Assembly (NCBI GenBank): GCA_963847705.1
Contig: CAWKBC010000027.1
Coordinates: forward strand, 192,001 to 256,000
Source of the DNA: an uncultured Pseudomonadota bacterium
GTDB lineage: Bacteria > Myxococcota_A > Polyangia > Fen-1088
Direction of reading: 5' to 3'
Length of the DNA: 64,000 nt
The notes under the pieces are model-generated. The model did not search any database. It saw only the letters and a program-made list of their open reading frames with translations, and was not told where the DNA came from. Numbering within the stretch: position 1 is the stretch's first letter; every line of letters starts with the position of its first letter. A program made the position numbers and the translations under genes. Of this stretch, positions 47,722 to 64,000 are shown piece after piece.

Positions 47722-49613
47722 GTGCTGTCGTCGCTGCTGGTCGTGTCGATCGGCCTCGCGGGCGGGACCACCATCTACCAGTCGGCGCGCACCATGCGCC
47801 GCGAGCTGACCACCGAGTACCAGCTGTTCGCCGAGAACCGCGCCTTCGCGCTGCGCGACAACTTCGAGATCCTCGAGGACGAGCTCAAGCGCCTGGCGCT
47901 CTTGCCGGAGATGAACCCGACCGATCCCGATCTGCTGCAAGAGGAGCAGATCCTGGCCGGCGCGCACGCCCACTCGGTCCTCTACAACGCGGCGGTGCTG
48001 CTGCTCGACCGCAACGGCCACTGCGTGCGTTCGGTCCCCGACCAGTCGGCCTTCGGCGGCCAGTCGTTCGGGGATCGCTCCTGGTTCCGCTCGGTGCGGG
48101 GCGGGGAGGCGGGGCCGCTCTTTCGCATCACCGACGAGCCGACGCTGGGACAGACGCTGAAGATCGTGCAGCCGATCGTCCGCGGCGGGACCTTCACCGG
48201 CGCGCTGGTCGGGGTCATCGCGCTCGCCGAGAACAACCTGATCGCGCCGACCTTTCGCGAGAACCTGCCGCGCGACACCGACGCGGTCCTCATCGACGAG
48301 GACGCGCAACTCGAGCGGGCAGGGGGCGTCATCTATCCACCCGGCCGGCCGCGGGTGATGGGCGGCTCCAGCTGGGCTGAGGCGATCACCGCCGCCTCCT
48401 ACGGACAGAGCGGGACGCTGATCGGCGAGGCCAATGGCCAGAAGGCGCTGTTCGCCTACGCCCCGGTCGGCGGCGGGACCCGGTACGCGGTGGTCTTCTC
48501 CTGGCCCTGGCGGACGCTGACCGCCAACATCGAGCAGCAGGGAGCGACCCTGGGCGGGATCCTGGTGTTCGGCATCCTGGTGGCGACCATCGCCGGCGTG
48601 CTGCTGTCGGCCTACCTGACCCGGCCGCTGCAGGCGCTGGCCGCCGGGGCGATCCGCATCGCGCGCGGCGAGCACCTCCCGGCGGCCTCCACCCCGCGCC
48701 CGGCGGGGACCGAGGAGATCTCCACGCTGCTGGGCGCGTTCGAGCAGATGGAGGACTCGATCCAGAAGCGCGACCAGGAACTGCGCGAAGCGGCCGGAAT
48801 GCTGGAGCAGCGCGTCCGTGACCGCACGCAGGAGCTGGTGGCGACGCAGGCGGCGCTGGTCGAGGCCGAGCGCTTCGCGGCGATGGGCAAGACCTCGGCG
48901 GCGATCGCGCACGAGCTGAAGAACGCGCTCAACGGCCTGGGGATGGCGGTCGAGCTCATCGCCCAGGATCCCTCCAACACCACGCGGGTGGCGCGCTTGC
49001 GCCCGCAGGTGGTCGGCGAGATCGCGCGCCTGCGCGACGTGGTCGATTCGCTGCTCTCGTTCTCGCGCTCGCCGCGCATCGAGCGCGCGCCGGCGGATCT
49101 GGCGGCGGTGGTCGCGCGCGCGTCGGAGGCGGTCACCGACCTGGTCGCCGACCGCAGCGTCGTCCTGACCGTCAACGCGCCCCCCACGCTGCCGTTCCGC
49201 TGCGACGCCCACAAGATCCAGGGGGTGATGGTGAACCTGATCAAGAACGCCGTCGAAGCGGGGCGCACCGTCCTGGTCTCCGTGGGGGCGCGCGGCGGCG
49301 AGGCGCGCATCGAGGTCTCCGACGACGGCCCGGGGCTGTCGCCCGAGGCGCGCGCCCACCTGTTCGAGCCGTTCTTCACCACCAAGCCGAACGGCACCGG
49401 GTTGGGGCTGCCGACCTCGCGGCGTTTCGTGGAGGCGCACGGCGGGGCGATCGACGTCGGCACCTCCGAGCTGGGGGGCGCTCTCTTCCGCGTGCGGCTG
49501 CCGCTCGAGGTAGAACCCAACCTGGAGAGCGATCGCGCGGAGGCAGCCGGGATTCGCCCGGCGGAGTCCGTCGCGGGGGGGAGCGGGGACCCTCTCAGGG
49601 TCCCCGAAAACAG

Positions 49614-49617
<4 letters not shown>
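47722..49617 (+). CDS. Sensor histidine kinase (Cache-like periplasmic domain + HAMP)
   Basis: Two TMs, HAMP, AHELKNAL, NLIKNA, DDGPG, FFTTK..GTGLGL; start approximate. Confidence 0.9.
49545..49606. repeat. 62-bp double-hairpin palindromic element, copy 2, in the kinase C-terminal tail
   Basis: agccgggattcgcccggcggagtccgtcgcgggggggagcggggaccctctcagggtccccg. Confidence 0.8.
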
Positions 49618-51008
<1,391 letters not shown>

Positions 51009-51033: not shown

Positions 51034-51786
51034 CTACCCGCCGCTGGGGATCATGTAACTGGTCAGCTCCTCCAGGTGCCCCGTGGTGTTCGACTCGCGG
51101 ATCTTGCCGACGCCGGGCACGAACCACTGGCTCTTGGCGGTGCCGTCGGAGGTGTCGGTGCGGGTGATCTTGAGCGCGCTGAACGTCCCGGCCGGCACGG
51201 TGACCGTCTCGTTGACGGCGTCGGTGGTCCAGTTCTCGGTGATCGTCTTGTTGGTGGCCGGCTTGCTGGCCGAGGTGTGGGCGTCCATGTAGCTCAAGGT
51301 CCAGGCCGCGCCCGCCATGAGGTGGTCGGGTGATTCGTCGACCCGCAGATCGTACGGCGTGTACCAGTCCTCCGACGACATCACGCCGTTGGCGTCGACC
51401 TGCTGGTCGTGGTGGCGGCGCACGTCGGTGGCGGTCGACTCGTACCAGGTCAGCTGGGTGCTGGTCTTGATCGTCTCGCTGACCTTGTAGCCCATGATCC
51501 CCGCGGCGATGCCGCCGATGTCCTCGTACGACTCGACGGCGCTGTTCTTGACGTAGGCCACCCCGGTGTCGGTGACGTTGTAGACCCAGGTCGTCCCCAC
51601 GACCAACGGCTGGTAACGACCGCTCGTCACCAGCGGCACCGCGCCGTCAGCCGCCAGCGCTCCGCTGCTTCCGCCGCTGCCGCTGGTGCTCCCCACGCTT
51701 CCGCCACTTCCGCTGCTGCTGCACCCGGCCCCCGCCACCGCCGCCAGCGCGGCGAAAGGAATGATCTTCACCACCAAGAAACGCAT
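51034..51786 (-). CDS. Beta-rich lipoprotein
   Basis: Lipobox GAGC; YQPLVVGTTWVY...ETVTVPAGTF...WFVPGVG. Confidence 0.75.
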   Translation of the reverse strand: MRFLVVKIIPFAALAAVAGAGCSSSGSGGSVGSTSGSGGSSGALAADGAVPLVTSGRYQPLVVGTTWVYNVTDTGVAYVKNSAVESYEDIGGIAAGIMGYKVSETIKTSTQLTWYESTATDVRRHHDQQVDANGVMSSEDWYTPYDLRVDESPDHLMAGAAWTLSYMDAHTSASKPATNKTITENWTTDAVNETVTVPAGTFSALKITRTDTSDGTAKSQWFVPGVGKIRESNTTGHLEELTSYMIPSGG

Positions 51787-51845
51787 GCTCGTGCTCCTTC
51801 CTACGTTGCCCCCATTGCCCCGTTCCCCTCGGGCCCGCGCCGCGG

Positions 51846-52535
51846 CTATGTGGCGGCGGGAGCCATCTTCCCTTCGTCGACCGTGACGGCGTGGATGCCG
51901 GCGATCTGCGTGTCGGCCAGCTGCCGCAGCACGGTGGAGGCGTCCATCGTCTCGCCGAGGACGGTCTCCATCACCAGCCGCCCCGGGCCTGGATTCCCGG
52001 TGGGGAGCTCCAGCACCCGCGCGCCCGGAAACGCCAGCTTGATCTGGTCCCAGGCGCTGCGCGGGTCGTCGAGCTGCACCGAGACCCGCACCAGGCGCAG
52101 CCGCGCCCGCCGGCCGAGGTCGAAGAGAGCCAGCACCACCCCTGCGAACAGCGTCGCCACCACCGCCATGGGGACGGCACCGAGACCGCAGGCCATGCCG
52201 ACGCCGATCATCACGAACATCACCGCGGCGTCGCGGGTGTCCTTGATCCCCGAACGAAACCGGATGAAGCCGCCCAGACCGACCAGGCCGAAGGCGCGCG
52301 CCGTGCTGTGGCCGATGACCACCACCATGAGCGCACCCGCCAGCGCGATCAGCGTCTGCGCCTGGGCGACCTCGCGCGCGGGCGGCAGCGCGTTGGGCAG
52401 GAGGCGCCGCCAGGGGCGAAAGCCCAGGAAGGCGCCCAGCAGCGACGCGATCACCATCCGCACCAGCACCACCTCGAACCTCGAGGTGCCCATCGTCTCG
52501 AGCCCCAGCGTGTCGTTGAGGTCGAAGGGCGACAT
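51846..52535 (-). CDS. DUF4956/MgtC-like membrane protein
   Basis: ARAFGLVGLGGFIRFRSGIKDTRD...GMACG; four TMs plus soluble C-terminal domain. Confidence 0.8.
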   Translation of the reverse strand: MSPFDLNDTLGLETMGTSRFEVVLVRMVIASLLGAFLGFRPWRRLLPNALPPAREVAQAQTLIALAGALMVVVIGHSTARAFGLVGLGGFIRFRSGIKDTRDAAVMFVMIGVGMACGLGAVPMAVVATLFAGVVLALFDLGRRARLRLVRVSVQLDDPRSAWDQIKLAFPGARVLELPTGNPGPGRLVMETVLGETMDASTVLRQLADTQIAGIHAVTVDEGKMAPAAT

Positions 52536-52537
52536 AC

Positions 52538-54247
52538 TCAGGCCGCCATCACGGAGAGCGTGAGATTGGCGCCGGTGGCGATGATGGCCGCCTGCTTGAG
52601 CAGCGAGATCTGGCCGGCGAATCCGGCCAGGGCGCGGTCGAGGAGCTCGCGCCCGCGCGCGCCGTTGACCAGGACGCCCAGGCTCTTGACCACGCTGGGG
52701 GGCCAGATCTCCAGGCAGGCCTCGCGGATCTCCCAGGCGGTGTCGTGATCGAGGCCGATCATCGAGTCGAGCGCCTCGCGGCAGCGCATGGCGGTTCCGG
52801 TGCGCAGCGCCCAGGCGCGCGCGTCGTCCATCCCGGCGATGGTCGAGAGCACGGCCTTGGGGGCGCGCCCGACCGCGCGCTCGCGCCAGAGCCAGGCCTT
52901 GTCGCTGCAGAGCCCTCGCAACGACGCGATGGCGGCCACCGGTGCCACGTCGCGCGCCGACTTGCGCAGCTTCCAGGCCTCCGGTCTGTCGAGCCCGGTC
53001 ACCGAACGGGCCAGGGCGCGCGCCCGGATATAGTTGCCGGCGGCGCGCCCGGGGCCGCCCTGCTCGGCGATCCAGCGCGCGCGAAGATCCCAGGCGCGTG
53101 GCACGTCGAGCAGCGCCAGCGAGGCCACCACCGCCTCCGGCACGCGCTCGAAGAGCTCGGCGCGCAGGGCCCAGGCGGTCTCGTCGTCGAGACCCTCGAG
53201 GCTGGAGGCCACCTCGGCCGGCGCGATGTCCGCCAGGAGCTCACGCATGGCCCAGGCCTCGGTGGCCTCGGCGGCCATGTCGGTGAGCGAGCTCGCGACC
53301 TCGGCGGGGGCCGATTCGACCAGCGCCCGGCGCAGCTGCCAGGAGGTGGCGTCCGACAGTCCGCGCAGCCCGCGCGCCACGATCCGGGGGACCGTCGCGG
53401 AGAAGGCGAGGCGGCGCTGGTCGATCCCTGGTCCCGCCGTTCCTGACAGCACGTAAGCCGCCAGGCCGGGCTCCGAGCGCGCGCGCCGATCGACCCAGGC
53501 CAAGAAGGCGTCCAGCGCCGAGCGAGGGCCGTCGACCTGCGGGACCGCGGACGGTGGGGCGAGGGTGGCCAGACGCGCGCGCGCCTCCTTGATCGCCGCC
53601 TCGCGGTCGATCATGGCGCGCGCGATGGCGTCGACGATCGCGCCGACCACCTGGTCCAGCGCGGCATCGCTGTTCTCGACGATGATCCAGCGCGCGCTGT
53701 CACGCCCGGCCAGGGCGCGGTAGCCAGCCCGCAGGCGGGTTTGCAGACCGCTGCCGGTCAGCCCCTTGCGCGACACCGGCCGGCGGTCGGGCGAGAGGAT
53801 CTTGGCCACCTTGCGCCGCCCCCGCGCCACCGACGGGTCGACGTCGATGAGGAAGGCCAGCTCCGGCCAGAGTCCCCCCGCGGCCGTGGCCAGCACCGGG
53901 TCGATCTCCTGGCTGGGAAGATCGCGCCCCGCCTGCGCCAGCACCTCGGCGGTGTAGAGGTAGCGATCCGCGATGACCACGTCGGCGCGTCCGAGCGCCG
54001 GGCGCAGCACCTCGTCGGCCAGCTGGACCTCGCGGGCCACGTAGAGCATCAGCTCCGCCCGCGGGGAGAGCGCCATGTTGCGGGCGTCCCGGCAGAAGTC
54101 GCGAATCCCTTGCGTCACCTTGGAGGCGAAGGCCCCCTCCTCGCGCAGATGCTCGACCGTGAGGCCGCGCTCGCGCAGCATCTTGGCGACGCGATTCGAG
54201 ATCGTCGTCTTGCCACTGCCGTCGATCCCCTCGAATACGACAAACAT
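52538..54247 (-). CDS. tmk: Thymidylate-kinase-family protein fused to helical (HEAT-like) repeats
   Basis: FVVFEGIDGSGKTT, RE.G, ELMLY.AR, VIADRY; C-terminal half of about 28-aa repeats. Symbol reflects the fold; function unproven. Confidence 0.8.
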   Translation of the reverse strand: MFVVFEGIDGSGKTTISNRVAKMLRERGLTVEHLREEGAFASKVTQGIRDFCRDARNMALSPRAELMLYVAREVQLADEVLRPALGRADVVIADRYLYTAEVLAQAGRDLPSQEIDPVLATAAGGLWPELAFLIDVDPSVARGRRKVAKILSPDRRPVSRKGLTGSGLQTRLRAGYRALAGRDSARWIIVENSDAALDQVVGAIVDAIARAMIDREAAIKEARARLATLAPPSAVPQVDGPRSALDAFLAWVDRRARSEPGLAAYVLSGTAGPGIDQRRLAFSATVPRIVARGLRGLSDATSWQLRRALVESAPAEVASSLTDMAAEATEAWAMRELLADIAPAEVASSLEGLDDETAWALRAELFERVPEAVVASLALLDVPRAWDLRARWIAEQGGPGRAAGNYIRARALARSVTGLDRPEAWKLRKSARDVAPVAAIASLRGLCSDKAWLWRERAVGRAPKAVLSTIAGMDDARAWALRTGTAMRCREALDSMIGLDHDTAWEIREACLEIWPPSVVKSLGVLVNGARGRELLDRALAGFAGQISLLKQAAIIATGANLTLSVMAA

Positions 54248-54257
54248 CCTTCTCACC

Positions 54258-55124
54258 TCACGCGGCCACGAAAGACCCGACTGCGAACAGCGGTGACGCC
54301 GGGGCGGCTGGCGCCAGGCCGTCGCTCTCTTGACTCACCTCGCCGGTGTGACCGAGCGCGGTCATCCCCATGCGGAACTTGGAGAAGCTGTCGGCTGGCT
54401 GCAGTGACTCCAGCGCCGGCCCCAGCCAGAACGGCATCTCGCCGCTGTGTTTGATCTCCAGGACCCGGGCCGGAAACATGGCGATCACCTCCCGGTCGCG
54501 CGGCGCTGCCAGCGAGCCCGGGTCGCCGATCAGTTGCGGCCGGCAAAACGTCAGATTCTCGTCGAGGGTGATGCGGATGCGGCGGGCGTCGGCCGTCAGG
54601 CAGAGACGCCGGTACCAGGTCGCCAGGCGCGGGGCCATCGTGGGAAGCGCCAGCTCGCGGGCAAGCTCGGTCTGCCCGGCGGTCATGTTGGACGAGGGCC
54701 CCACGGCACGCGCGGCCAGCATCCGCGCGATCTCGGCCGGCGAGGCGGCCAGGCGCACCTTGCGGCGCACCGGGCCGTCATGCTCTTTCAGCTCCACGAA
54801 CGCCACGCCCGAGAGGATCGGCGCGTCCTTGGGGCTGGCCGCGATGGCGTACTCGCGGATCCGGAGCCGCCGCGCCGGCGCCCCCTCGCCGGTTCGAAAG
54901 TACGTCAGGTCGTCGGTGTCGAGATAGGTCGTACGTGTGTACGAGATGGGCCGGGCGGGATCGTAGATCTCGATGGCCGTCCGCGCGGCGATCGTGTTGA
55001 GGAAGCGGCGCATCTCTCCGTGGGAGAGCAGGAAGCGCAGCTCGTGATCGAACGGGTCGCTGTTCGCTGCCTTTGAGCCCGCTGTCTTTTGGCTCGGCGT
55101 AGACGTTTCGACGGCACCACCCAT
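54258..55124 (-). CDS. VTC-domain (CYTH, polyphosphate polymerase-like) protein
   Basis: ELRF, TTYLDT, RLRIREY, FVELK, YRR, RITLDENL, VLEIK, FSKF; RBS GGAGG. Confidence 0.85.
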   Translation of the reverse strand: MGGAVETSTPSQKTAGSKAANSDPFDHELRFLLSHGEMRRFLNTIAARTAIEIYDPARPISYTRTTYLDTDDLTYFRTGEGAPARRLRIREYAIAASPKDAPILSGVAFVELKEHDGPVRRKVRLAASPAEIARMLAARAVGPSSNMTAGQTELARELALPTMAPRLATWYRRLCLTADARRIRITLDENLTFCRPQLIGDPGSLAAPRDREVIAMFPARVLEIKHSGEMPFWLGPALESLQPADSFSKFRMGMTALGHTGEVSQESDGLAPAAPASPLFAVGSFVAA

Positions 55125-55187
55125 GTCGTTTCACCTCCGCTTGAGATATCCGCCGGACGGGAAGCCGGTCGCACGAGCGTGAGCATG

Positions 55188-55203
55188 TGCAAGTCAAATG
55201 CCG
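55188..55203 (-). promoter_or_regulatory. Putative sigma54 (-24/-12) promoter of the VTC operon
   Basis: Minus strand CGGCATTTGACTTGCA (GG-N10-GC with TTGCA), about 65 bp upstream of the VTC ATG. Confidence 0.65.
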
Positions 55204-55287
55204 ATTGCCGCGCCGCAAGGCACGGGGGGTTGGCCCATCGCCGGCGCCCGGCCGTTACCGCGGCGTAATCCGCTCAACCAGGGGCGG

Positions 55288-57213
55288 TTACCGATCGTCG
55301 ATCGCGTCGAGCGCGCCGAATCCACCCCGCGCGGCGAGGCGCGGGGCGAGGCCGGACGAGCGCTCGAGGGGCCTGCCGGCCGCCTGTGCGAGCAGCGCGC
55401 GTCGCCCCACGACGACGATCGATCGACGGGCGCGGGTCACGGCGGTGTAGATCAGCTCACGCGAGAGCAGGGGCAGGTCAATCTCGGGCAGGATCAGCGC
55501 CGCCTGATCGAGCTCGCTCCCCTGCGCCTTGTGGACCGTGGTGGCGTAGGAGATCGCCACCGCGCCGCGCAAGGTGGCGGCCGGGAAGAGCGCCAGCGTC
55601 GACTGATGCGGGAAGGCGAACATCGCCGTCGGCGCGCCGTCATTCTCGGCCTGCGCGACCAGCAGGGCGACCCCCTGGTCGCCGTTCATCAAGCCGCGAT
55701 CGTAGTCGTTCTCGATCATCATCACCGGCGTGCCGGGCGGAAGAGCGTCGGGAGTGGCTTCGTCTCCCAGCTCATGCGCGGCGCGGCGGACGAGCAGCTC
55801 ATTGATGCGATCGGCCCCCGCCTGACCAACGCGGGTCACCGTCAAGAGGCGCGCGCGGCGGTGGCGAGCGAGGAGCGCGTTCGCCAGCGCGGTGCCGGCC
55901 TCGTCGAGCACGCCGCGCGCGACCTGAGGGATCCGGCGGGGCTGCAGCATCGCCAGGGTGGGGTGAACGTGCCGCGCATACCAGTGGTCGACGAAAGAAC
56001 CCAGCAGGCGGTGGCCGTGACCGTCGCGGGTGTCGGGCTCGCACTGCTCGAACCCGACGAAGGTGAGCGCCTCGATTCCGGCCAGGCCCGCCGCAGCCTG
56101 CCGCGCGGGCGGGGCCTTGCCGGCGGCGATCTGCCGGGCGGCCTCCAGGATCTCGGCGCCGGCGGGATCGTCGGGGCTCATGCGGTGGCTCTCGGGCAGG
56201 CGGAGCGCGAGGGGCCCGAGGTCGCGCAGGACGCTGCCGGCCTGGATCGCGGGCAGCTGATCCGCATCGCCGATCAGCACCAAGCGCGCGTCGGGACGCA
56301 GCGCCCGCACGAGCTGCTCCACCAGCATCAGATCGACCATCGACGCCTCGTCGACGATGACGCCGGCGTGGGGCAGCCGGTTGTTCTCGTGGTGGCGGAA
56401 CGCGCCGCCGTGCAGCGCGCGGCGCGCGGAGAAACCCAGCAGGCGGTGCAGCGTGCTCGGCGCCGGTGTCTCGAGTCCATCGGCGACGAGCCCCTCGGCG
56501 ATCCGGTTGGCCGCCTTGCCGGTCGGGGCGGCGACGGCGATCATCTCCGCCGAGAGCCCCGCCGCGCGCCAGGCGCGGACGATCCCCCCGATGAGCGCGG
56601 TCTTCCCGCTGCCGGGCCCGCCGGTCACGACGGTCAATGGCCGCGCCAGCGCTGCGGCGATGGCGGCGCTCTGCGCGGCGGTCCAGGGACGGCTGGGGAG
56701 CGCGGCCGCGGCCAGCGCGGTCGCCGCGTCGACGGCCTGGTCGCCGAAGGGGGGAACGGCGGTGGCGATCCGCGCGGCCAGCGCGTCGGCCAGGCGCTCC
56801 TCCAGCCGGAGGTCACGTTCCTGATAGAGACAGCCGTCGTCGACGATGAAGGGACGGTGGTCCCCCAGACGTCCGACGAGTGGTGCCAGCGCAGGCTCCA
56901 GGGCGAGACGGTCGGCCAGACGACCCGCCAGGGCAGCGGCCGCCGCGCGATCGGCGAGGGTGGCGCCCAGCCGCTCGAGCCGCGCCTCGAGCCCGCTTCC
57001 CGTCCCACCGGTGAGCGCCAACCGCGTCGCTCCCTCCGCCCGCGCCTCGCACGAGGCGAGGACCAGCAGCGCGAACGCACGGCGCTCGGTCCCGGGAAGC
57101 TCCCGTGGCCAGCCGGCGGCTTCGAGCGCGAGAAAGAGCGCCTCGCGATCGACGTCGCCCCCGGTCAGCGCCGCGGCCCAGGCGGGCGGCCAGCTTCGGT
57201 CGGGCGCGCTCAC
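55288..57213 (-). CDS. recD: Exodeoxyribonuclease V alpha subunit
   Basis: GGPGSGKT, APTGKAA, TLHRLL, VDEASM, GDADQL, NGDQG, TVHKAQGSE, YTAVTRAR; GTG overlaps the recB stop. Confidence 0.92.
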   Translation of the reverse strand: MSAPDRSWPPAWAAALTGGDVDREALFLALEAAGWPRELPGTERRAFALLVLASCEARAEGATRLALTGGTGSGLEARLERLGATLADRAAAAALAGRLADRLALEPALAPLVGRLGDHRPFIVDDGCLYQERDLRLEERLADALAARIATAVPPFGDQAVDAATALAAAALPSRPWTAAQSAAIAAALARPLTVVTGGPGSGKTALIGGIVRAWRAAGLSAEMIAVAAPTGKAANRIAEGLVADGLETPAPSTLHRLLGFSARRALHGGAFRHHENNRLPHAGVIVDEASMVDLMLVEQLVRALRPDARLVLIGDADQLPAIQAGSVLRDLGPLALRLPESHRMSPDDPAGAEILEAARQIAAGKAPPARQAAAGLAGIEALTFVGFEQCEPDTRDGHGHRLLGSFVDHWYARHVHPTLAMLQPRRIPQVARGVLDEAGTALANALLARHRRARLLTVTRVGQAGADRINELLVRRAAHELGDEATPDALPPGTPVMMIENDYDRGLMNGDQGVALLVAQAENDGAPTAMFAFPHQSTLALFPAATLRGAVAISYATTVHKAQGSELDQAALILPEIDLPLLSRELIYTAVTRARRSIVVVGRRALLAQAAGRPLERSSGLAPRLAARGGFGALDAIDDR

Positions 57214-60200
57214 GGCGCCTGCTCCGCGCCGAGTCTGGCGGCGATCTCGACGCCCCAGACGGAGAGCTCGGCGAAGGTCGGGCGGCGGCTGCGGACGGCG
57301 CCCGCGCCCGGCAGGCCGCGCACGAACAGGTAGAGCGTGCCGCCGAAGCGGGCCTGGTACTCGGCCTCGCTGGCGATGCCGAGCATGCGGACCAGCGCCA
57401 GCGCGTAGAGCTGCTCCTGCAACGCGTAGTTCTTGGCGACGTGGGCCTCGACGACCGCCTGGTCCCAGCTGGGGAGGCGATCGGTCTTCCAGTCGCCGAA
57501 GTAGACCCGCCCCTCGTGCTCGAACAGCAGGTCGACGAACCCCTTGACGTAGCCGCGGTCGGCGCCGCCGGCCGCCTCGGGGAAGGGGAACAGGAACTCC
57601 ATCTCGCGCGCCTCGCGCCTGGCGTGGGCCAGTCCGGGAAGAACGCCACCGACGACCGGGAGCGGCGTGGTGAGCGCGGCGTGGGCCAGGCGCGCGGCGG
57701 CCAGCAGGTGCCGCGGCTCGCGCCCGTGCCGGCGCAGCGTCGCCTCGAGCAGCGCACGGATGTCGTCGCGCGCGGCCCAGGCCTCGAAGCCGTCGGTCGC
57801 CCGCAACGTCTCGAGCGGCACCCGCTCCAGCAGATCGTGGACGAAGACCCCCGCCCGCGCGCCGCCCGGGAGATCGTCGTCGGCGAGCGGCGGCGCATCG
57901 TTCGTCTCGTCGTGAATCTCCGTCGGTGGACGGTAGCCCCCTTCGGACTGCTTGATGCGGCTGTAGGAGGTGAGGGTGGGGCCGGCCCGGCGTCGCCGCA
58001 GCTGCGCCAGCTCCGCCTCGGGGACGGCGGTGGTCGAGGCCGTCGGCGCTCCGGGCTTCGAGGTCGTCTTCGACGCCGTTTTCGAGGCACCTGGCTTTTC
58101 GACGTCGGGCCGCCAGCCGACCAGACCCAGCAACGCCAGGCGCGGCCGTCCGCCGTCGCCCGAGCCACGCGGATCGATCGGCACGTCGCGCATCTCGAAG
58201 TGCCGCCGCTGCCCCTCGTCGGCCCGCAGCGCGCGCAGGCGGCGGTTCACGTGGCTGTAGCCGCCGCTCAGCTTCCAGTTGATCTCCCGGGTTCCCCCCT
58301 CGATCGGGGCGTCGCTCTCGCCTTCGCCGGAGAACGGCAGGTAGAGCCGCCGCCGGGCGCGCGTGAGCGCCACGTAGAAGAGCCGCTGATCCTCGCTCTC
58401 GCGCTCGCGCTTGATGAGCGCGGCCAGCGCGTTGGTCCTGGGACGGCCCGCCATCGCCACCCGCGAGCCGGCGTCGGTGTAGTGACGAACCCCCTTGTTC
58501 GGCGACGGGCTGTAGCCGCCGTACAGAAAGACCACCTCGGCCTCCAGCCCCTTCGCCTTGTGCATGGTCATGATCTGGACGGCGTCGTGGTCGCTCTCCA
58601 GGCGCTGGACGTTTCCCTCCTCCGCCTCGGGCACCAGCAGCTTCTCGCACAGCGCCGAGAGGCGGCGGACGACGTCGCCCAGAGGCCGGGCGGCGCGCGC
58701 GGCCTCGGCGGAGAGGACCTCGAACAGGTGGCGGATGTTCACCAGCCGGCGCGCGCTCTCACCCATGAAGAGCTCGCGTGAGATGACGCCGCTCTCGTCG
58801 AGGATGCGCGCATAGAGGCGACCGAGCGGCTCGCGCGTGGCGGCCGCGTGCCAGGAAAAGAGACGCGCGAAGAGGGGGTGATCGCCCTCGGCTCCCGCGG
58901 CCGCCGGGAGATCGGCCAGCGAGAGCCCGAAGAACGGCGTCAGCCAGGCGCGCAGCCGCTTGGCCGGATCGCGTGGGTCGGCGACGGCGCGCAGGAGATC
59001 CCGGACCTGCCGCGCCTCGGGCGAGGCATAGAGGCCCTCCTGGTTGTAGATGACGGCGGGAACCCCGCGGGCGCCGAGCGCGCCGGCGACCGCCTTCGCC
59101 TCGACCCAGGTTCGGGTCAGCACGAAGATGTCGCTGGCGCGCAGCGGCTCCGCGCCTGGCAGCGGCTCTGCGCCAGCCAGGAGGTCGACGATCTCCCGCG
59201 CCACGGCCTGGGCGAGCCCCTCGCGAACCGCGCGCATCGGCAGCCGGGCGACATCCTCGTCGGCGGTCACGCGCAGGAGCGTGACGGGTGCTGGCGCGGG
59301 GATCGGCGCCGGTGTGGGCGGCGGGTCGTCTTCGGGGCCGTACGTGACCGGCGGGTCGTACTTGATGTCGCCGTGGTTGAAGAAAGGGTCCGCCGCCGTC
59401 TGATCGAGGATGGCGTTGTAGGCGTCGATGACGGCGCGGGTGGAGCGAAAGTTGCGCGTCAGGTGGTGTGCCTCGTCGGACGCCGCCACGGTCTCGCGGG
59501 CCTCGACGTAGGTCGCCACGTCGGCCCCTCGAAATCCGTAGATGGCCTGCTTCGGATCGCCGACCAGATAGAGCGGCCTGGCTGCGCGCTCATCGAAGAT
59601 CCTTCGAAAGATCTCCCACTGGATCTGGTCGGTGTCCTGAAACTCGTCGACGATCGCCAGCCGGTACCGCTGCCGCAACGTCGCGGTCAGCTCGCTGCCG
59701 CGCGGGCCGTTGAGCGCGTCGTTCACCAGCGTGAGCATGTCGTCGAAGTCGTAGAGCCCCGCGGTCCGCTTGCGCGCCGCCAGCCGGGCGGCGACGGGCG
59801 GGACGAAGAGCTGCGCCACCGCGGCCTCGAGCGGAATCGCCGCGTCGGCCAGCTCCGCGACCGCGGCGACGACCGGCCCCGTTCGCCGCTCGAGCCGCTC
59901 GCTGACGAAGGCCAGCAGGTCGTCCTTCCCCGAGGGCAGATCGAGGGCGGCCAAGAATCGCCCGGTGTGGCCGTCGCTCTCGAACCGGCGCGTGGCGGCG
60001 TGGAGCGTGCGCAGCCGCGCGCTCACCGCCTTGGCCGTCGAGCCGTGCATCCCGGTCGTGCTCGCGTCGAGCTCGGCTGGCGTGAGGCGCGCGAAGGCCC
60101 GCGCCGCGGCGGCGATGCGCTGGGGATCGAACGGCGTTCCCCAGCGGGCGCGCAGCTGGTGCGCCCGGTAGAGGAGCGCCTCCAGGCTGTCGACCGTGGC

Positions 60201-60743
60201 GGCGCTTCCCCCCCGGGCCAGGTAGGCCTCGAGGTAGGGGGTCTGCGCGCCGTCGACGGCCAGCTCCTGGCGCAGCACCTCGGCGAAGGCGGCGGCAAAC
60301 GCCGCGCGGCTCTCCACGCTCTGCTGGAGGAGCAGACGCCCGCCGGCGAAGGCCTGCTCGGTGAGCACCCGCTGGCAAAAGGCGTGGATCGTCGAGATCG
60401 GCGCGCTGTCGAGGCTGCGCGCGGCAGCGTCCAGCCGGGCGCGCGCCTGGTCGTCGATCGTCCAGACCGACGTGGCGCGCGCCGTCGATTCGCGCGCCGT
60501 CGCCACCTTCTTGATCAACGCGCCGATGCGGCGCCGCAGCTCGGACGCCGCCCGGTCGGTGAAGGTCACGACCAGCATCTCTTCCAGCCGGGCGTCGCCG
60601 CGGACCATGCGATCGACGACCAGGTGCTCGATCAAGAACGTCTTGCCCGTCCCGGCCGACGCCTCGATGACCGCCGAGCGCGCGCGCGCGATCCGGCCCA
60701 GCTCGGCGGGGAAGGGATAGAGGACCTTCGTCGGGGCGCTCAT
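57210..60743 (-). CDS. recB: Exodeoxyribonuclease V beta subunit
   Basis: EASAGTGKT, DEFQDTD, GDPKQAIYGFRG, TMHKAKGLE, YVALTRA; nuclease motif GFVDLLF...DWKT...Q..LY. Confidence 0.95.
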   Translation of the reverse strand: MSAPTKVLYPFPAELGRIARARSAVIEASAGTGKTFLIEHLVVDRMVRGDARLEEMLVVTFTDRAASELRRRIGALIKKVATARESTARATSVWTIDDQARARLDAAARSLDSAPISTIHAFCQRVLTEQAFAGGRLLLQQSVESRAAFAAAFAEVLRQELAVDGAQTPYLEAYLARGGSAATVDSLEALLYRAHQLRARWGTPFDPQRIAAAARAFARLTPAELDASTTGMHGSTAKAVSARLRTLHAATRRFESDGHTGRFLAALDLPSGKDDLLAFVSERLERRTGPVVAAVAELADAAIPLEAAVAQLFVPPVAARLAARKRTAGLYDFDDMLTLVNDALNGPRGSELTATLRQRYRLAIVDEFQDTDQIQWEIFRRIFDERAARPLYLVGDPKQAIYGFRGADVATYVEARETVAASDEAHHLTRNFRSTRAVIDAYNAILDQTAADPFFNHGDIKYDPPVTYGPEDDPPPTPAPIPAPAPVTLLRVTADEDVARLPMRAVREGLAQAVAREIVDLLAGAEPLPGAEPLRASDIFVLTRTWVEAKAVAGALGARGVPAVIYNQEGLYASPEARQVRDLLRAVADPRDPAKRLRAWLTPFFGLSLADLPAAAGAEGDHPLFARLFSWHAAATREPLGRLYARILDESGVISRELFMGESARRLVNIRHLFEVLSAEAARAARPLGDVVRRLSALCEKLLVPEAEEGNVQRLESDHDAVQIMTMHKAKGLEAEVVFLYGGYSPSPNKGVRHYTDAGSRVAMAGRPRTNALAALIKRERESEDQRLFYVALTRARRRLYLPFSGEGESDAPIEGGTREINWKLSGGYSHVNRRLRALRADEGQRRHFEMRDVPIDPRGSGDGGRPRLALLGLVGWRPDVEKPGASKTASKTTSKPGAPTASTTAVPEAELAQLRRRRAGPTLTSYSRIKQSEGGYRPPTEIHDETNDAPPLADDDLPGGARAGVFVHDLLERVPLETLRATDGFEAWAARDDIRALLEATLRRHGREPRHLLAAARLAHAALTTPLPVVGGVLPGLAHARREAREMEFLFPFPEAAGGADRGYVKGFVDLLFEHEGRVYFGDWKTDRLPSWDQAVVEAHVAKNYALQEQLYALALVRMLGIASEAEYQARFGGTLYLFVRGLPGAGAVRSRRPTFAELSVWGVEIAARLGAEQAP

Positions 60744-63700
60744 CGCGGCTTCCGCCTGGGGGGAGGATCTCGGGGCGCGAACGCCGCGAAGTAGGGGCCG
60801 AAGCGCCGGGTGACCATCTCGACGGCTTCGGCTTCGGGCGGCACGGGGTAGTCGCGCGGGTCGGGGATGGGCCCGTGATCGGAGGCGAAGCGGGTCCAGT
60901 TGTCGTCGCGCAGGACCAGGATCGACTGGCGCACCCCGACCGTCTCGCCTTTGTCGGAGTGGTCCTTCCAGTAAAAGACCCCCTCGCAGGGGAGAAAATA
61001 GGCGTGCACCTCGCGCAGCAGCTCGGAGGCCAGCCCGCCCAGGTAAACGCGGGCCGCCTCCCCCGTGGTGGGCAGGAAGAGGCGCTCCTCGACGGACGGC
61101 GTCCCGTCTTTCTCCGGCCTGATGACGACGGCGCGCGTCGGTGGTGACGCGCCGTCGTCTCTCAGCGCCGCCAGCGCGAGGTGGGTGAGGAAGGGGCCCA
61201 GCAGATCCCGTTCCAGCTTGTCCTGGCTGGTCGAGCTGGCCAGCGCGAGCACGATGCGCGATTCGTCGGCCGCCCGCGCCTGGAGCTCGGTGCGCCCCCC
61301 GATGGCGACCGTGGCACCCTCCGCGAGCGGGACCACCAGGGCCGGGCCAATCAGCACGTCGCGGCGGTGCTCGGGCGCGGCGCCCAGCCAGAGCGGCGCC
61401 GGCGCGGTCACGAGGCCCCCGGTCGCTTGCAGGAATCCGTCGCGCCAGCAGCGGAGGAGACCCAGGTGACGCTCGCGCAGCGCGCGGCCGAAGAGGCCGT
61501 CGGGGAGCTTCCCTGCGAGCGTCTCGAGGGTGGCGGCCCGGTCGTACGCTTCGACCAGCTGCTGATCGTTGTCTCGGTCCTGGCCGCCCTGAGCGGACTC
61601 GGCCAGGAGACCCGTGAGCACGTTGCGCAGAAACGGGATCGTCGAGGCGCGCGCCTCGTCGAGCGGCTCGTGCTCGCGGAGCGCCGCTTCGGCGTCGGCC
61701 ATGGCGTCGGCTTCATCGCCGACCGGCAGGAGCACGCGCGCGGAGGCCTGCAGCGGGCACTCCAGGAAGCGGCGCAGATCGAAGAGCGTCAGCCCGCGGC
61801 GGGCGCGCGTCGCGGCGAGCGCCGGCGGGGGCGCGACCCAGTCGAGCTCGGCGGCCACGCTGGCCCAGGCGTCGGGGCCGAGCGCGCCGCGCAGCTCGCT
61901 GAGCGCCGGGAGCTGGCGCACGCCGCCGCCGGCCCGGCGCAGCGAGGCGCCGAGCGCCGCCGCCCGCCGCTCGCGCGCGGCGGCGGGGATCACCGCGCAG
62001 GCCGCTGGGTCCTCGTGCCGCGCCAGAGGCGGCCGCGCCCGCAAGATCTCGAACGGCGCTCCCGCCGGCGGCGATTTCGAGGCGTCCTCTCGGGCGCGGT
62101 CGGGCTCGGCCAGAGCAAACAGCGCCTCGACGACGGACGACGGGGCGCGCGGCTCGCCGGTGACCGCGTCGCGGGCCACGTACGAAAGGGTGATCCGCTC
62201 GCGCGCCGCCAGCAACGTCTCCAGGAACATGTGCTGGTCCTGCTCGCGCGGGGTGACGTCGCCGGCGCGCGGCGCGAAGGAACGAAGATCGAGCGCCCGT
62301 GTCTCGACAGGTGTGGGAAAGACCCGCTCGTCGAGACCGGCGACGAAGATCATCCGGAACGGCAGCGCGCGCATCGGGACGAACGAGGCGACGGTGACCC
62401 CCTCGGGCGAGCGGTGCCGCCGCGGCGTCCCCCCGAGGCGCGCCTTCACCAGCTCGGCGGCGACGCGGAAGCTGACCGGCAGCTCGGCGGGCAGGAACGC
62501 CGCGATGTCGACGAGCGCGCGGAGCGCGTCGCCCAGCGCCGCCTCCTCGTCGCCGGGCTCGGGGAAGATCGTCTGGGCGATGGTGCGCCGCAGGAGCGCC
62601 GCGTGGGTCTCGAAGGGCGCCGGAGCGCCGCGCGCCGCGTCCGCGAAGGCGATCAGCTCCCGGGCGATGATCCCCAGCGCGCGGGCGGCCGGCTCCAGGC
62701 CGGGGGGCAGATCGAACGGCAGCACCGCCTCACCGTCGAGGACGAAGGCGCGCTCCTCGCCGCTCCGCGGCCCGGACAGAAACGCGCCCAGCGCCAGCCG
62801 CCGCAGCCCCTGCTCCCAGCTGGTCCGATCGCGCGTCAGGTAGCTCGCGGCCTGATCGGAGCGGTCGGCGCCGCGGACGATCTCCAGCGCCTCGCACAGC
62901 GCCAGCCAGTCCTCGGGATCGACCTCGGGGAAGCGGCGCGCGACGGCGGGGTGCATCGCCACGCGCAGCAGATCCGGCCGCCCCAGAGAGCCGAGCGGCA
63001 GCTCCAGCAGGAGCCCGACCACGTCGAGGATCCGCCGCTCGGCGGGGCGGGGGAGATCGACGATCGTGTGCGGCAGGCGGGACGCCGCCTCGAACACCGC
63101 CTGCGCGAGCGGCAGGTAGACCGGCGCGCTGGCGGCCGGCACGATGACCGCGAAGTCGGCGAAGGTCAGGGTCTCGTCGGCCCGGATGCGCGACCAGATC
63201 TCGGCGGCGATCGTCTCCAGCTCCCGGCGCGGATCGGCCGCGGGGACGACGGTCAGGCTGTCGTCGTCGGGGCGCGCGGTCCGCGGAGAGACCGACCGGC
63301 GCTCGAGCACCGCCGCTTGAAACGCCGCCAGCCGCGGCGCGCGCGCGCCTGAGGGCGGGGCCACGAAGCGCGCGTCGACCTCGCCGCCGGCCAGGCGCGT
63401 GAGCAGCTGCACGTTGTCGCGCCCCGGACGCGCCCAGGCATCCAGCGGTGACTCGTCCGGCCCCGCCGTCGCCTCCGCCTCGCCCGCGGTGACGCCGTTG
63501 GGGCTGAGGGTGTAGACGTGCAGCTCGGTCGCGCGCGCCAGCGTCTCGAAGATCGAGCCGTAAAGGCGGGCGACGTACGAGATCCCGAACAGGTGCACCG
63601 CAGGCGGCGGTCGAAGCTCTTCGGCCGGCGTCCGGGCGAAGAACTCGGGCAGGGTCACCATCCCCTTGGCGGCAAAGAGGCCCCGCGGACCGTGCAGGGC

Positions 63701-64000
63701 CAGCCAGAGCGCGCTTTGCCAGCGCTGCAAGGCCTGGTCGGCCTCGGGGACCAGCGCCCCCTCCCGCCAGGCGGCCAGCATTTCGGGGCGCGAGAACGCG
63801 TACTCGTCGAACAGCGCCGCCAGCTCGGCGGCCAGCTGGACCCGCTTGCGATCGCGCGCGTCCCCGTCGGAGCTGTGCAGATAGTCACGCACCGGGCCCA
63901 GCTCGGGCCCATTCAACCATGCAAAATCATGGAACAAGCCCAGCAACGCCCCCTCGATGAGATCGCGGTCGACGATGGTGGCGTCGGGCGCGCTCTGCGC
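60740..64000 (-). CDS. recC: Exodeoxyribonuclease V gamma subunit; 5' end beyond the window
   Basis: LFDEY...RPE, RELE, W..GLRRL.LG, PMRALPF, FLETLLAARE, L.RFLECP; frame open to 64000. Confidence 0.92.
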   Translation of the reverse strand, partial: AQSAPDATIVDRDLIEGALLGLFHDFAWLNGPELGPVRDYLHSSDGDARDRKRVQLAAELAALFDEYAFSRPEMLAAWREGALVPEADQALQRWQSALWLALHGPRGLFAAKGMVTLPEFFARTPAEELRPPPAVHLFGISYVARLYGSIFETLARATELHVYTLSPNGVTAGEAEATAGPDESPLDAWARPGRDNVQLLTRLAGGEVDARFVAPPSGARAPRLAAFQAAVLERRSVSPRTARPDDDSLTVVPAADPRRELETIAAEIWSRIRADETLTFADFAVIVPAASAPVYLPLAQAVFEAASRLPHTIVDLPRPAERRILDVVGLLLELPLGSLGRPDLLRVAMHPAVARRFPEVDPEDWLALCEALEIVRGADRSDQAASYLTRDRTSWEQGLRRLALGAFLSGPRSGEERAFVLDGEAVLPFDLPPGLEPAARALGIIARELIAFADAARGAPAPFETHAALLRRTIAQTIFPEPGDEEAALGDALRALVDIAAFLPAELPVSFRVAAELVKARLGGTPRRHRSPEGVTVASFVPMRALPFRMIFVAGLDERVFPTPVETRALDLRSFAPRAGDVTPREQDQHMFLETLLAARERITLSYVARDAVTGEPRAPSSVVEALFALAEPDRAREDASKSPPAGAPFEILRARPPLARHEDPAACAVIPAAARERRAAALGASLRRAGGGVRQLPALSELRGALGPDAWASVAAELDWVAPPPALAATRARRGLTLFDLRRFLECPLQASARVLLPVGDEADAMADAEAALREHEPLDEARASTIPFLRNVLTGLLAESAQGGQDRDNDQQLVEAYDRAATLETLAGKLPDGLFGRALRERHLGLLRCWRDGFLQATGGLVTAPAPLWLGAAPEHRRDVLIGPALVVPLAEGATVAIGGRTELQARAADESRIVLALASSTSQDKLERDLLGPFLTHLALAALRDDGASPPTRAVVIRPEKDGTPSVEERLFLPTTGEAARVYLGGLASELLREVHAYFLPCEGVFYWKDHSDKGETVGVRQSILVLRDDNWTRFASDHGPIPDPRDYPVPPEAEAVEMVTRRFGPYFAAFAPRDPPPRRKPR

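Follow-up and report, generated by a model that had tools for sequence, protein, structure and literature searches.

A four-gene operon from an uncultured soil myxobacterium joins a Vtc4-like triphosphate-tunnel enzyme to a remodelled thymidylate kinase (TMK) that is fused to a repeat solenoid. The reading that we favour, tentatively and with somewhat less than even confidence, is that the operon would synthesise and export polyphosphate (polyP), tuned by the fusion as a polyphosphate-linked kinase. The operon lies in a 64,000-nucleotide stretch (positions 192,001 to 256,000 of contig CAWKBC010000027.1, assembly GCA_963847705.1), the whole of which is called the window here. Comparison of sequences finds the operon itself, conservation of its promoter and enhancer, and the Vtc4 catalytic set. 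It also finds a remodelled pocket and basic lid in the fusion, co-occurrence of the fusion with VTC, and a predicted enhancer that also precedes pel and cotH genes; the polymer synthesis, transport and kinase activity are what we infer from these. The sequence-only reading of this stretch had described four tightly packed, co-oriented genes, and this arrangement is confirmed at the same coordinates, with the order VTC > TMK-repeat fusion > DUF4956 > lipoprotein:

54258..55124, minus strand: VTC-domain triphosphate-tunnel enzyme, Vtc4-like, 288 residues (PF09359, 75 bits)
52538..54256, minus strand: TMK-derived domain plus helical repeat solenoid, 572 residues (569 from the ATG at 54247), no membrane segment predicted
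53612..54247, minus strand: TMK-fold domain of the fusion, residues 4-215, with basic lid and altered thymidine pocket (Thymidylate_kin, 72 bits, residues 8-195)
52577..53524, minus strand: solenoid of the fusion, two-helix repeats of about 27 residues, approximately residues 245-560, uncatalogued in Pfam
51846..52535, minus strand: DUF4956 (MgtC-like) inner-membrane protein (PF16316, 43 bits; MgtC below cut-off)
51034..51786, minus strand: DUF3108-like lipoprotein, 250 residues, Cys22 (DUF3108_like, 24 bits, below cut-off)
55188..55203, minus strand: sigma54-type -24/-12 promoter site (stricter pattern, 22 matches in 6.1 Mb)
55254..55292, minus strand: predicted enhancer GGTAAC-N14-16-RATTAC-N5-GGTAAC, its distal half-site overlapping the recD stop codon

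The gap between VTC and the fusion is 1 base pair (bp) if the fusion starts at its GTG and 10 bp if it starts at the ATG at 54247, and the following gaps are 2 bp and 59 bp. The three families that had been named for these genes (VTC, Thymidylate_kin and DUF4956, at 75, 72 and 43 bits) all score above their Pfam cut-offs. The host genome (6.1 Mb, 85% complete, 69% GC) contains one VTC gene, one DUF4956 gene, two PPK1 genes and at least one PPK2 gene.

The tunnel enzyme closely follows the yeast polymerase at its catalytic positions. A profile of 76 homologues matches yeast Vtc4 (3g3q) with an E-value of 4.8e-19, and R30, R86, R88, K113, Y171, R173, E223, S248 and K249 of the VTC protein align with K200, R264, R266, K281, Y359, R361, E426, S457 and K458 of Vtc4, which the available part of a cryo-EM preprint (10.1101/2023.01.27.525886) gives as triphosphate and Mn ligands. 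The earlier claim that this protein keeps its tunnel motifs thus holds for all nine positions, which are kept in 76/76 aligned homologues, seven of them invariant and two showing only Arg/Lys exchange; the K200 equivalent is an Arg (R30) in the VTC protein itself. The equivalent of K249, K458, is described in the same part of the preprint as missing in the inactive Vtc2/Vtc3 (10.1101/2023.01.27.525886). Neither an SPX domain nor a fused membrane domain is present in the chain, where VTC occupies residues 27-257 of 288 and no hydrophobic segment occurs. Judged from these residues, the VTC protein is somewhat more probably a polymerase than a hydrolase, and hydrolysis keeps the smaller share because of an invariant Glu, E28.

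The kinase domain of the fusion is a descendant of TMK. Its structure model is confident (pLDDT 90), and fold similarity of the N-terminal domain is highest to canonical TMKs (Z 23.5-25.3; P. aeruginosa TMK Z 25.3, root-mean-square deviation (rmsd) 2.0), followed by cPPK3 (2plr, Z 19.5) and PPK2 (Z 10.5-11.8). PPK3, published in 2026 and known from Sulfolobus (Saci_2019/2020, STK_15430), is itself described in the available text of PMC12995831 as a TMK paralogue turned polyP kinase. The comparison with the PPK2 fold made in the sequence-only reading therefore stands as analogy but not as descent, the domain being a TMK descendant (Z 23.5 to TMK against 11.8 to PPK2). PF03976 (PPK2) has no match in the fusion, and the PPK2 matches of the genome lie elsewhere.

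A residue-by-residue comparison set 81 dereplicated fusion domains against 104 canonical TMK domains; the canonical controls were collected by a P-loop pattern, so that P-loop identity among them is by construction. The fusion domains retain the P-loop, R38, R52, E68, D97-R98 (DR in 94%), R111, R147 and R163, as well as an aromatic stacking residue at position 72 (Tyr 70%). Three positions that we take from TMK structures to be thymidine-binding have changed: position 76 goes from Arg (99% of canonical domains) to Glu/Asp (91% of fusion domains), position 106 from Tyr (99%) to Leu/Met (87%) and position 107 from Gln (100%) to Ala/Gly/Ser (94%). In addition, position 56 goes from Leu (94%) to Arg/Lys (95%), and Gln19, lid Asp162 and lid Glu/Asp165 are lost. 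Basic residues are gained at 75 (Arg, 95%), 145, 148, 149, 152, 159 and 164, giving a lid charge of +5.8 versus -0.8 in canonical domains. Because the thymidine-pocket residues are lost throughout the family, the fusion is, as far as its residues tell, very unlikely to be a thymidine monophosphate (dTMP) kinase. A profile search for a separate canonical tmk, the check proposed for this point, found one on contig C17 (1477-2115 of fetched locus L001, 144 bits), and the fusion is not the housekeeping copy. In this canonical gene Thr replaces the P-loop Lys (GSGTTT), as it does in 6% of the control TMKs. With 845 matches at E<=1e-10 among candidates of 314-1001 residues, hundreds of fusion-type proteins annotated as 'dTMP kinase' are probably misnamed.

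Beyond the TMK domain the fusion carries a solenoid of about 340 residues in which W-x-x-R recurs at a spacing of 26-27 residues or double that, and which is helical in the model. The repeat (about 27 residues) yields 603 representatives at E<=1e-3 and is shared by large transglutaminase-like proteins and stand-alone ones of about 340 residues (P0166, P0177, P0217, P0204, P0232). When the solenoid was compared within the full fusion model, PSMD2 was alone among the matches listed (Z 11.5, rmsd 6.2 over 299 residues), a modelled similarity that is within the generic helical-repeat range; an ESM Atlas search with the repeat gave no usable match. A generic docking role would suit the occurrence of the repeat in other protein types. 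As a repeat-only alignment is too divergent for pattern search, the locus scans described below were built on P-loop patterns.

The DUF4956 protein has several hydrophobic helices by hydropathy and an invariant G-F-x-R-F-R in its alignment. Fold searches with its model (pLDDT 74, pTM 0.56) had no result at E<=1e-3; the best Z was 8.0, to unrelated helical proteins, and none exceeded 8. A C-terminal ACT-like domain weakly resembled the MgtC C-terminal domains (Z 6.4-6.5). The matches listed did not include VTC membrane subunits, an absence that does not speak for a different fold. On its genomic context we assign the protein a putative channel role, and think it slightly more probable than the contrary that it is the translocase of a split version of the yeast VTC complex. 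The lipoprotein carries Cys22 and its N-terminus is hydrophobic; a distant paralogue lies elsewhere on contig C27. The proposal that the polymer is handed over to this lipoprotein fares poorly, as a homologue is found in only 11/22 of the GTDB fusion loci described next, without phosphate-related annotation.

Fusion loci were collected from Myxococcota and Planctomycetota, comprising at least 22 from GTDB and at least 13 mostly short ones from metagenomes, which are a sample and not a census. In the 22 GTDB loci VTC is present in 18, DUF4956 in 14, the lipoprotein and a porin in 11 each, CotH and purple acid phosphatase in 5 each, PPDK_N in 3 and a Na/Pi cotransporter in 2, and VTC is present in 11/13 of the metagenome loci. 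Of four scanned, one had a Porin_O_P match. Gene order is variable, and a co-oriented DUF4956 always stands directly after the fusion. Close homologues carry Polyangia names, and a phylum sample contained a full-length fusion in 3/300 other genomes. By comparison, the fusion-locus profiles, which very distant homologues could escape, found no module gene in any of 125 canonical tmk loci, of which 73 are 10 kb or longer. The operon is conserved, and its fusion has kept module genes as neighbours despite many rearrangements.

Within the order to which the window belongs, the fusion is found in 38/89 genomes, and VTC is found in 38/38 of these versus 19/51 of the others, with VTC lying within 6 kb of 38/41 fusion copies. 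Likewise, pelG is present in 33/38 fusion genomes versus 7/51 others and is absent from four genus members that lack the operon. The genomes are kin, so that these counts describe linkage and are not independent. As the fusion always occurs with VTC and VTC often occurs without the fusion, the pattern of occurrence marks the fusion as an add-on dependent on VTC. In one relative (G434) there are three fusion copies (contigs C17, C26 and C27), each with its own VTC nearby. Two subtypes are seen, that of the window (VTC > fusion > DUF4956 > lipoprotein) and a second with the order (porin) > fusion > lipoprotein > VTC > Na/Pi. Among the 19 genomes with VTC and no fusion, 8/10 loci fetched read VTC > DUF4956 > HlyD > TolC-type channel, and 6 of those 8 (within L214-L222) have a PPDK_N gene with a lipoprotein-like N-terminus ahead. 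PPDK_N (ATP-grasp dikinase) genes with lipoprotein-like N-termini lie beside VTC modules at L029:4357-6312, L108:5530-7551 and L222:2776-4875. The N-termini of the CotH and PPDK_N partners were judged by eye, and the PPDK_N proteins of VTC modules are, from their sequences, probably extracytoplasmic dikinase domains.

The absence of a CotH gene, emphasised in the sequence-only reading, applies to the operon but not to the genome, where 11 CotH matches fall in 9 open reading frames. Its suggestion that the TMK-fold protein takes the place of CotH does not survive, since 5/22 loci hold both and CotH lipoprotein genes lie behind the same predicted enhancer elsewhere in relatives; replacement of CotH by the fusion was rejected on this count.

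We next considered the promoter. The bare GG-N10-GC pattern that had been offered as evidence of sigma54 control is uninformative because the genome is 69% GC, and it occurs 12.7 times per kb per strand; the full site at 55188-55203 is a strict-pattern match and is conserved in relatives, and that part of the claim holds. Specifically, the enhancer and sigma54 site precede VTC in 21/22 VTC-first loci, a set that includes near-duplicates and close kin, and the single locus lacking them is of the Na/Pi type. The sigma54 site lies 49-54 bp downstream of the enhancer in 20/21 loci and 32 bp downstream in the remaining one. The operon thus appears sigma54-driven as proposed, with a conserved palindromic activator site upstream of the promoter. 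The strict core of the enhancer occurs once in the host genome. In one soil metatranscriptome 5% of the words were present, and contigs of relatives that span the operon plus recD may be DNA.

A composite enhancer-promoter pattern gave 42 matches in 30/89 genomes of the order, and a reversed-pattern control gave 0. Of these matches 23 lie before VTC (assigned by coordinates against a VTC search of the same genomes), 6 before genes for CotH-MopE lipoproteins, 3 before pel operons including that of the host on contig C25, and 5 before a gene for a sigma70 factor; another 3 are at contig ends and 2 elsewhere. No phosphate-uptake gene lies behind any of the 42 as classified. The pel promoters were also analysed directly in 20 pel regions from relatives plus that of the host, of which 18 contain the initial gene and 17 the DNA upstream of it. 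A sigma54 site is present in 16/17 and the palindrome with at most one mismatch in 12/17, compared with 4/221 sigma54-like sites in the genome as background. The pel-like operon of the host (C25:77968-85118) encodes a TPR protein, a DUF3492/GT4 PelF-type protein and PelG, and it too follows this enhancer and a sigma54 site. A GH114 gene is divergent from it, and a lexA gene lies downstream. The CotH-MopE lipoprotein gene of the host (C21:64797-66374) has a strong sigma54 site and, about 40 bp upstream, a single GTAAC half-site; in relatives, CotH-MopE genes do follow complete palindromes. In the window, recC-recB-recD lie immediately upstream of the operon (55288-63946), and a convergent dCache histidine kinase and NtrC-type sigma54 activator lie downstream (47722-51008), adjoining the operon in many genus members. 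The NtrC-type gene is found in 45/89 genomes, a good number of which lack the motif, and the same query missed it in 4 motif-bearing genomes; these counts do not tie the convergent pair to the enhancer, and paralogous activators could share one motif.

In the mechanism that we favour, the VTC tunnel enzyme would make polyP from ATP and the DUF4956 membrane protein would pass it to the cell envelope, where lipoprotein kinases such as CotH could use the exported polymer as a source of phosphoryl groups, or it could serve the Pel matrix as a counter-ion. Export is suggested by the HlyD and TolC-type ducts that adjoin VTC-DUF4956 in the fusion-less loci, and the porin genes of 11/22 fusion loci and the lipoprotein-like N-termini of the CotH and PPDK_N partners fit this context. 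The fusion, which would be cytoplasmic, would hold polyP under its basic lid and move phosphate between polyP and adenine nucleotide, either to prime the chain or to turn polymer that was not exported back into ATP; this assignment falls just short of an even chance in our estimate. The solenoid may dock the kinase on VTC or DUF4956. Stated in full, the proposal is that a split bacterial VTC machine in myxobacteria and some planctomycetes exports polyP as the phosphoryl supply of secreted kinases and the Pel matrix within one sigma54 regulon, and that the TMK-solenoid fusion is a further polyP-kinase family, a second TMK recruitment apart from PPK3, docked on the polymerase. We give this complete version low confidence.

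Several observations weigh against the polyP-export mechanism. The invariant E28 of the VTC protein, where Vtc4 has T198, is a Glu that we take to be typical of hydrolytic tunnel enzymes. DUF4956 is missing from 8/22 fusion loci, the window operon has no outer-membrane channel gene, and the Na/Pi cotransporter that stands beside the module throughout the second subtype points to uptake. The co-occurrence counts come from related genomes, the repeat is present in unrelated proteins too, and the five sigma70-factor matches (L265, L266, L267, L269, L273) represent four genus members with neither operon nor pelG. As regards polyP kinase activity, the charge of the fusion is mainly in the lid and that of cPPK3 in the nucleoside monophosphate (NMP) region (+4.3), the NMP-site residues R38, R52 and E68 are kept in the fusion and largely lost in PPK3, position 76 is acidic, and the host has PPK1 and PPK2, unlike most PPK3 hosts.

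The main rival is phosphate scavenging. Here a porin and an inner-membrane carrier (the Na/Pi cotransporter or DUF4956) would let in polyP or phosphate, VTC would hydrolyse short polyP or store phosphate in the cytoplasm, and the fusion would harvest phosphoanhydride energy. The porin (11/22), purple acid phosphatase (5/22) and Na/Pi cotransporter (2/22) genes of the fusion loci are in its favour, as are the Na/Pi subtype in close relatives, a DUF47/PhoU-like gene in fusion locus L025, an alkaline phosphatase gene adjoining one fusion-less VTC and the invariant E28. However, the HlyD and TolC-type ducts in 8/10 fusion-less loci, the full Vtc4 polymerase set with its K458 equivalent, and a predicted regulon of pel and cotH with no phosphate-uptake gene among the 42 matches make scavenging unlikely overall. 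A different possibility keeps polyP export and makes the fusion a nucleotide sensor, or a ribonucleotide kinase for an amino base (AMP/CMP type), that switches VTC in an SPX-like role. Replacement of Arg by Glu/Asp at 76 with loss of the Tyr and Gln suits an amino base with ribose, the acceptor-phosphate arginines and the aromatic residue at 72 are kept, and the solenoid suits protein docking. A precedent for coupling a tunnel domain to a P-loop kinase is plant TTM1, in the available text of PMC9582702. We nevertheless place this option at a low probability as well, because the base pocket is filled by the basic residues gained at 56 and 75, because nucleotide binding needs fewer than the six conserved basic positions of the lid, and because VTC-DUF4956 occurs without the fusion in many genomes.

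It is more doubtful still that Pel or some other polymer of the envelope receives from the module a phospho-substituent different from free polyP, whether supplied or attached by it. The pelG gene in 33/38 fusion genomes and the shared enhancer would fit, as would the contiguity of cotH, polyphosphate-polymerase and DUF4956 genes with pel in Gram-positives (available part of PMC7112168). On the other hand, pelG is unmatched in five fusion genomes and in most fusion-less VTC genomes, the operon has no transferase, and co-regulation need not mean a shared substrate. That the fusion is just a spare dTMP kinase at an incidental position is very improbable: it passes TIGR00041 (86.8 vs 83.25 bits) and its closest structures are canonical TMKs, but a canonical tmk (144 bits) is present on C17, the thymidine residues are lost family-wide, and the fusion stays with module genes through rearrangements while 0/125 canonical loci hold them.

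These genes are candidates for two open questions, namely how bacteria place polyP outside the cytoplasm and what the phosphoryl-donor source of secreted CotH-type kinases is. With regard to the former, the available text of PMC13484657 reports extracellular polyP that B. cereus makes without PPK1/PPK2, and this species is said there to lack a VTC4 homologue. The tie between VTC, CotH and pel, which takes the form of gene clusters in Gram-positives, recurs in myxobacteria as a predicted regulon, and this recurrence across phyla argues for a functional tie. Experiments are feasible because the fusion is present in cultured strains of Archangium, Cystobacter and Corallococcus. A literature search that mostly left subscription papers outside its range found no paper on the fusion, the operon or the regulon; the set of VTC, DUF4956 and CotH is already in print, without function.

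Of the known systems we compare PPK3 first; the fusion may work like PPK2 or PPK3. Like PPK3, the fusion is a TMK paralogue beside a canonical tmk, with dTMP residues lost, the DR Arg kept, basic charge added and polyP-related neighbour genes; the available part of PMC12995831 takes three features as the mark of catalytic PPK3, namely loss of the dTMP residues, a cleft that is basic, and retention of the DRX Arg. In contrast, its mean identity is 22% to PPK3 against 30% to canonical TMKs, it is a single chain with a solenoid where PPK3 is a cPPK3/rPPK3 pair, and its context is VTC where that of PPK3 is a PPX/SixA/CHAD/Pst operon. For this comparison we used 11 bacterial cPPK3/rPPK3 pairs with PPX/CHAD/SixA neighbours, one member of which scored 198 bits to 2plr/5h70. 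The motifs EWNSS, HATDFADR, FARD and EAGM seen in these pairs are absent from the fusion domains, and the fusion loci scanned contained no tandem TMK pair, frameshift pieces aside; identity of the fusion with PPK3 was rejected on motifs and operon. In Data S1 of PMC12995831, as far as available, 59/60 Myxococcota rows have PPK3=0, including Archangium, Cystobacter and Corallococcus (other strains than those of the fusion loci). A tree of 57 of 93 rows places the fusion and PPK3 in separate clades (support 96/89 and 100/99), and an approximately unbiased test with 38 rows did not reject a joint clade (p 0.545); we do not trust the deep branches of the 57-row tree because the canonical tmk of the host grouped beside PPK3 in it. 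The PPK3 pairs themselves (L180-L190) came from 11/61 genomes in a sample of the phylum to which an Acidobacteriota-type locus belongs, and their second subunit keeps the DR Arg and has Arg for the P-loop Lys, unlike the description of archaeal rPPK3.

The remaining systems each share part of the design. PPK2, which binds polyP between core and lid via Lys/Arg (PMC8776046), has a P-loop kinase core and a Lys/Arg-rich lid region like those of the fusion. Canonical TMK shares the fold (Z 23.5-25.3), P-loop, DR motif and lid Arg, and the fusion differs in its replaced thymidine-pocket Arg, Tyr, Gln and Leu and lid Asp/Glu and in the added solenoid. The eukaryotic VTC complex (Vtc4/Vtc3/Vtc1; 3g3q, 8i6v, 7ytj) has a homologous tunnel domain with all nine catalytic positions listed and an adjoining small membrane protein with conserved basic residues, whereas the operon VTC has no SPX or fused membrane domain and has the extra invariant Glu28. 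In Arabidopsis TTM1/TTM2 a tunnel domain likewise comes with a P-loop kinase and with a membrane anchor, but there, according to the available part of PMC9582702, the tunnel is dead, the kinase is uridine-kinase-like and all are in one chain, while in the operon the tunnel looks intact and the chains are separate. Finally, streptococci, clostridia and bifidobacteria have cotH, polyphosphate-polymerase and DUF4956 genes contiguous with pel, the same VTC and DUF4956 families tied to CotH and pel with no function given in the available text (PMC7112168), the main text of which contains neither 'thymidylate' nor 'Myxococc'. In myxobacteria the link to pel and CotH is instead a predicted sigma54 enhancer shared in trans; the TMK-repeat fusion and the lipoprotein are further additions.

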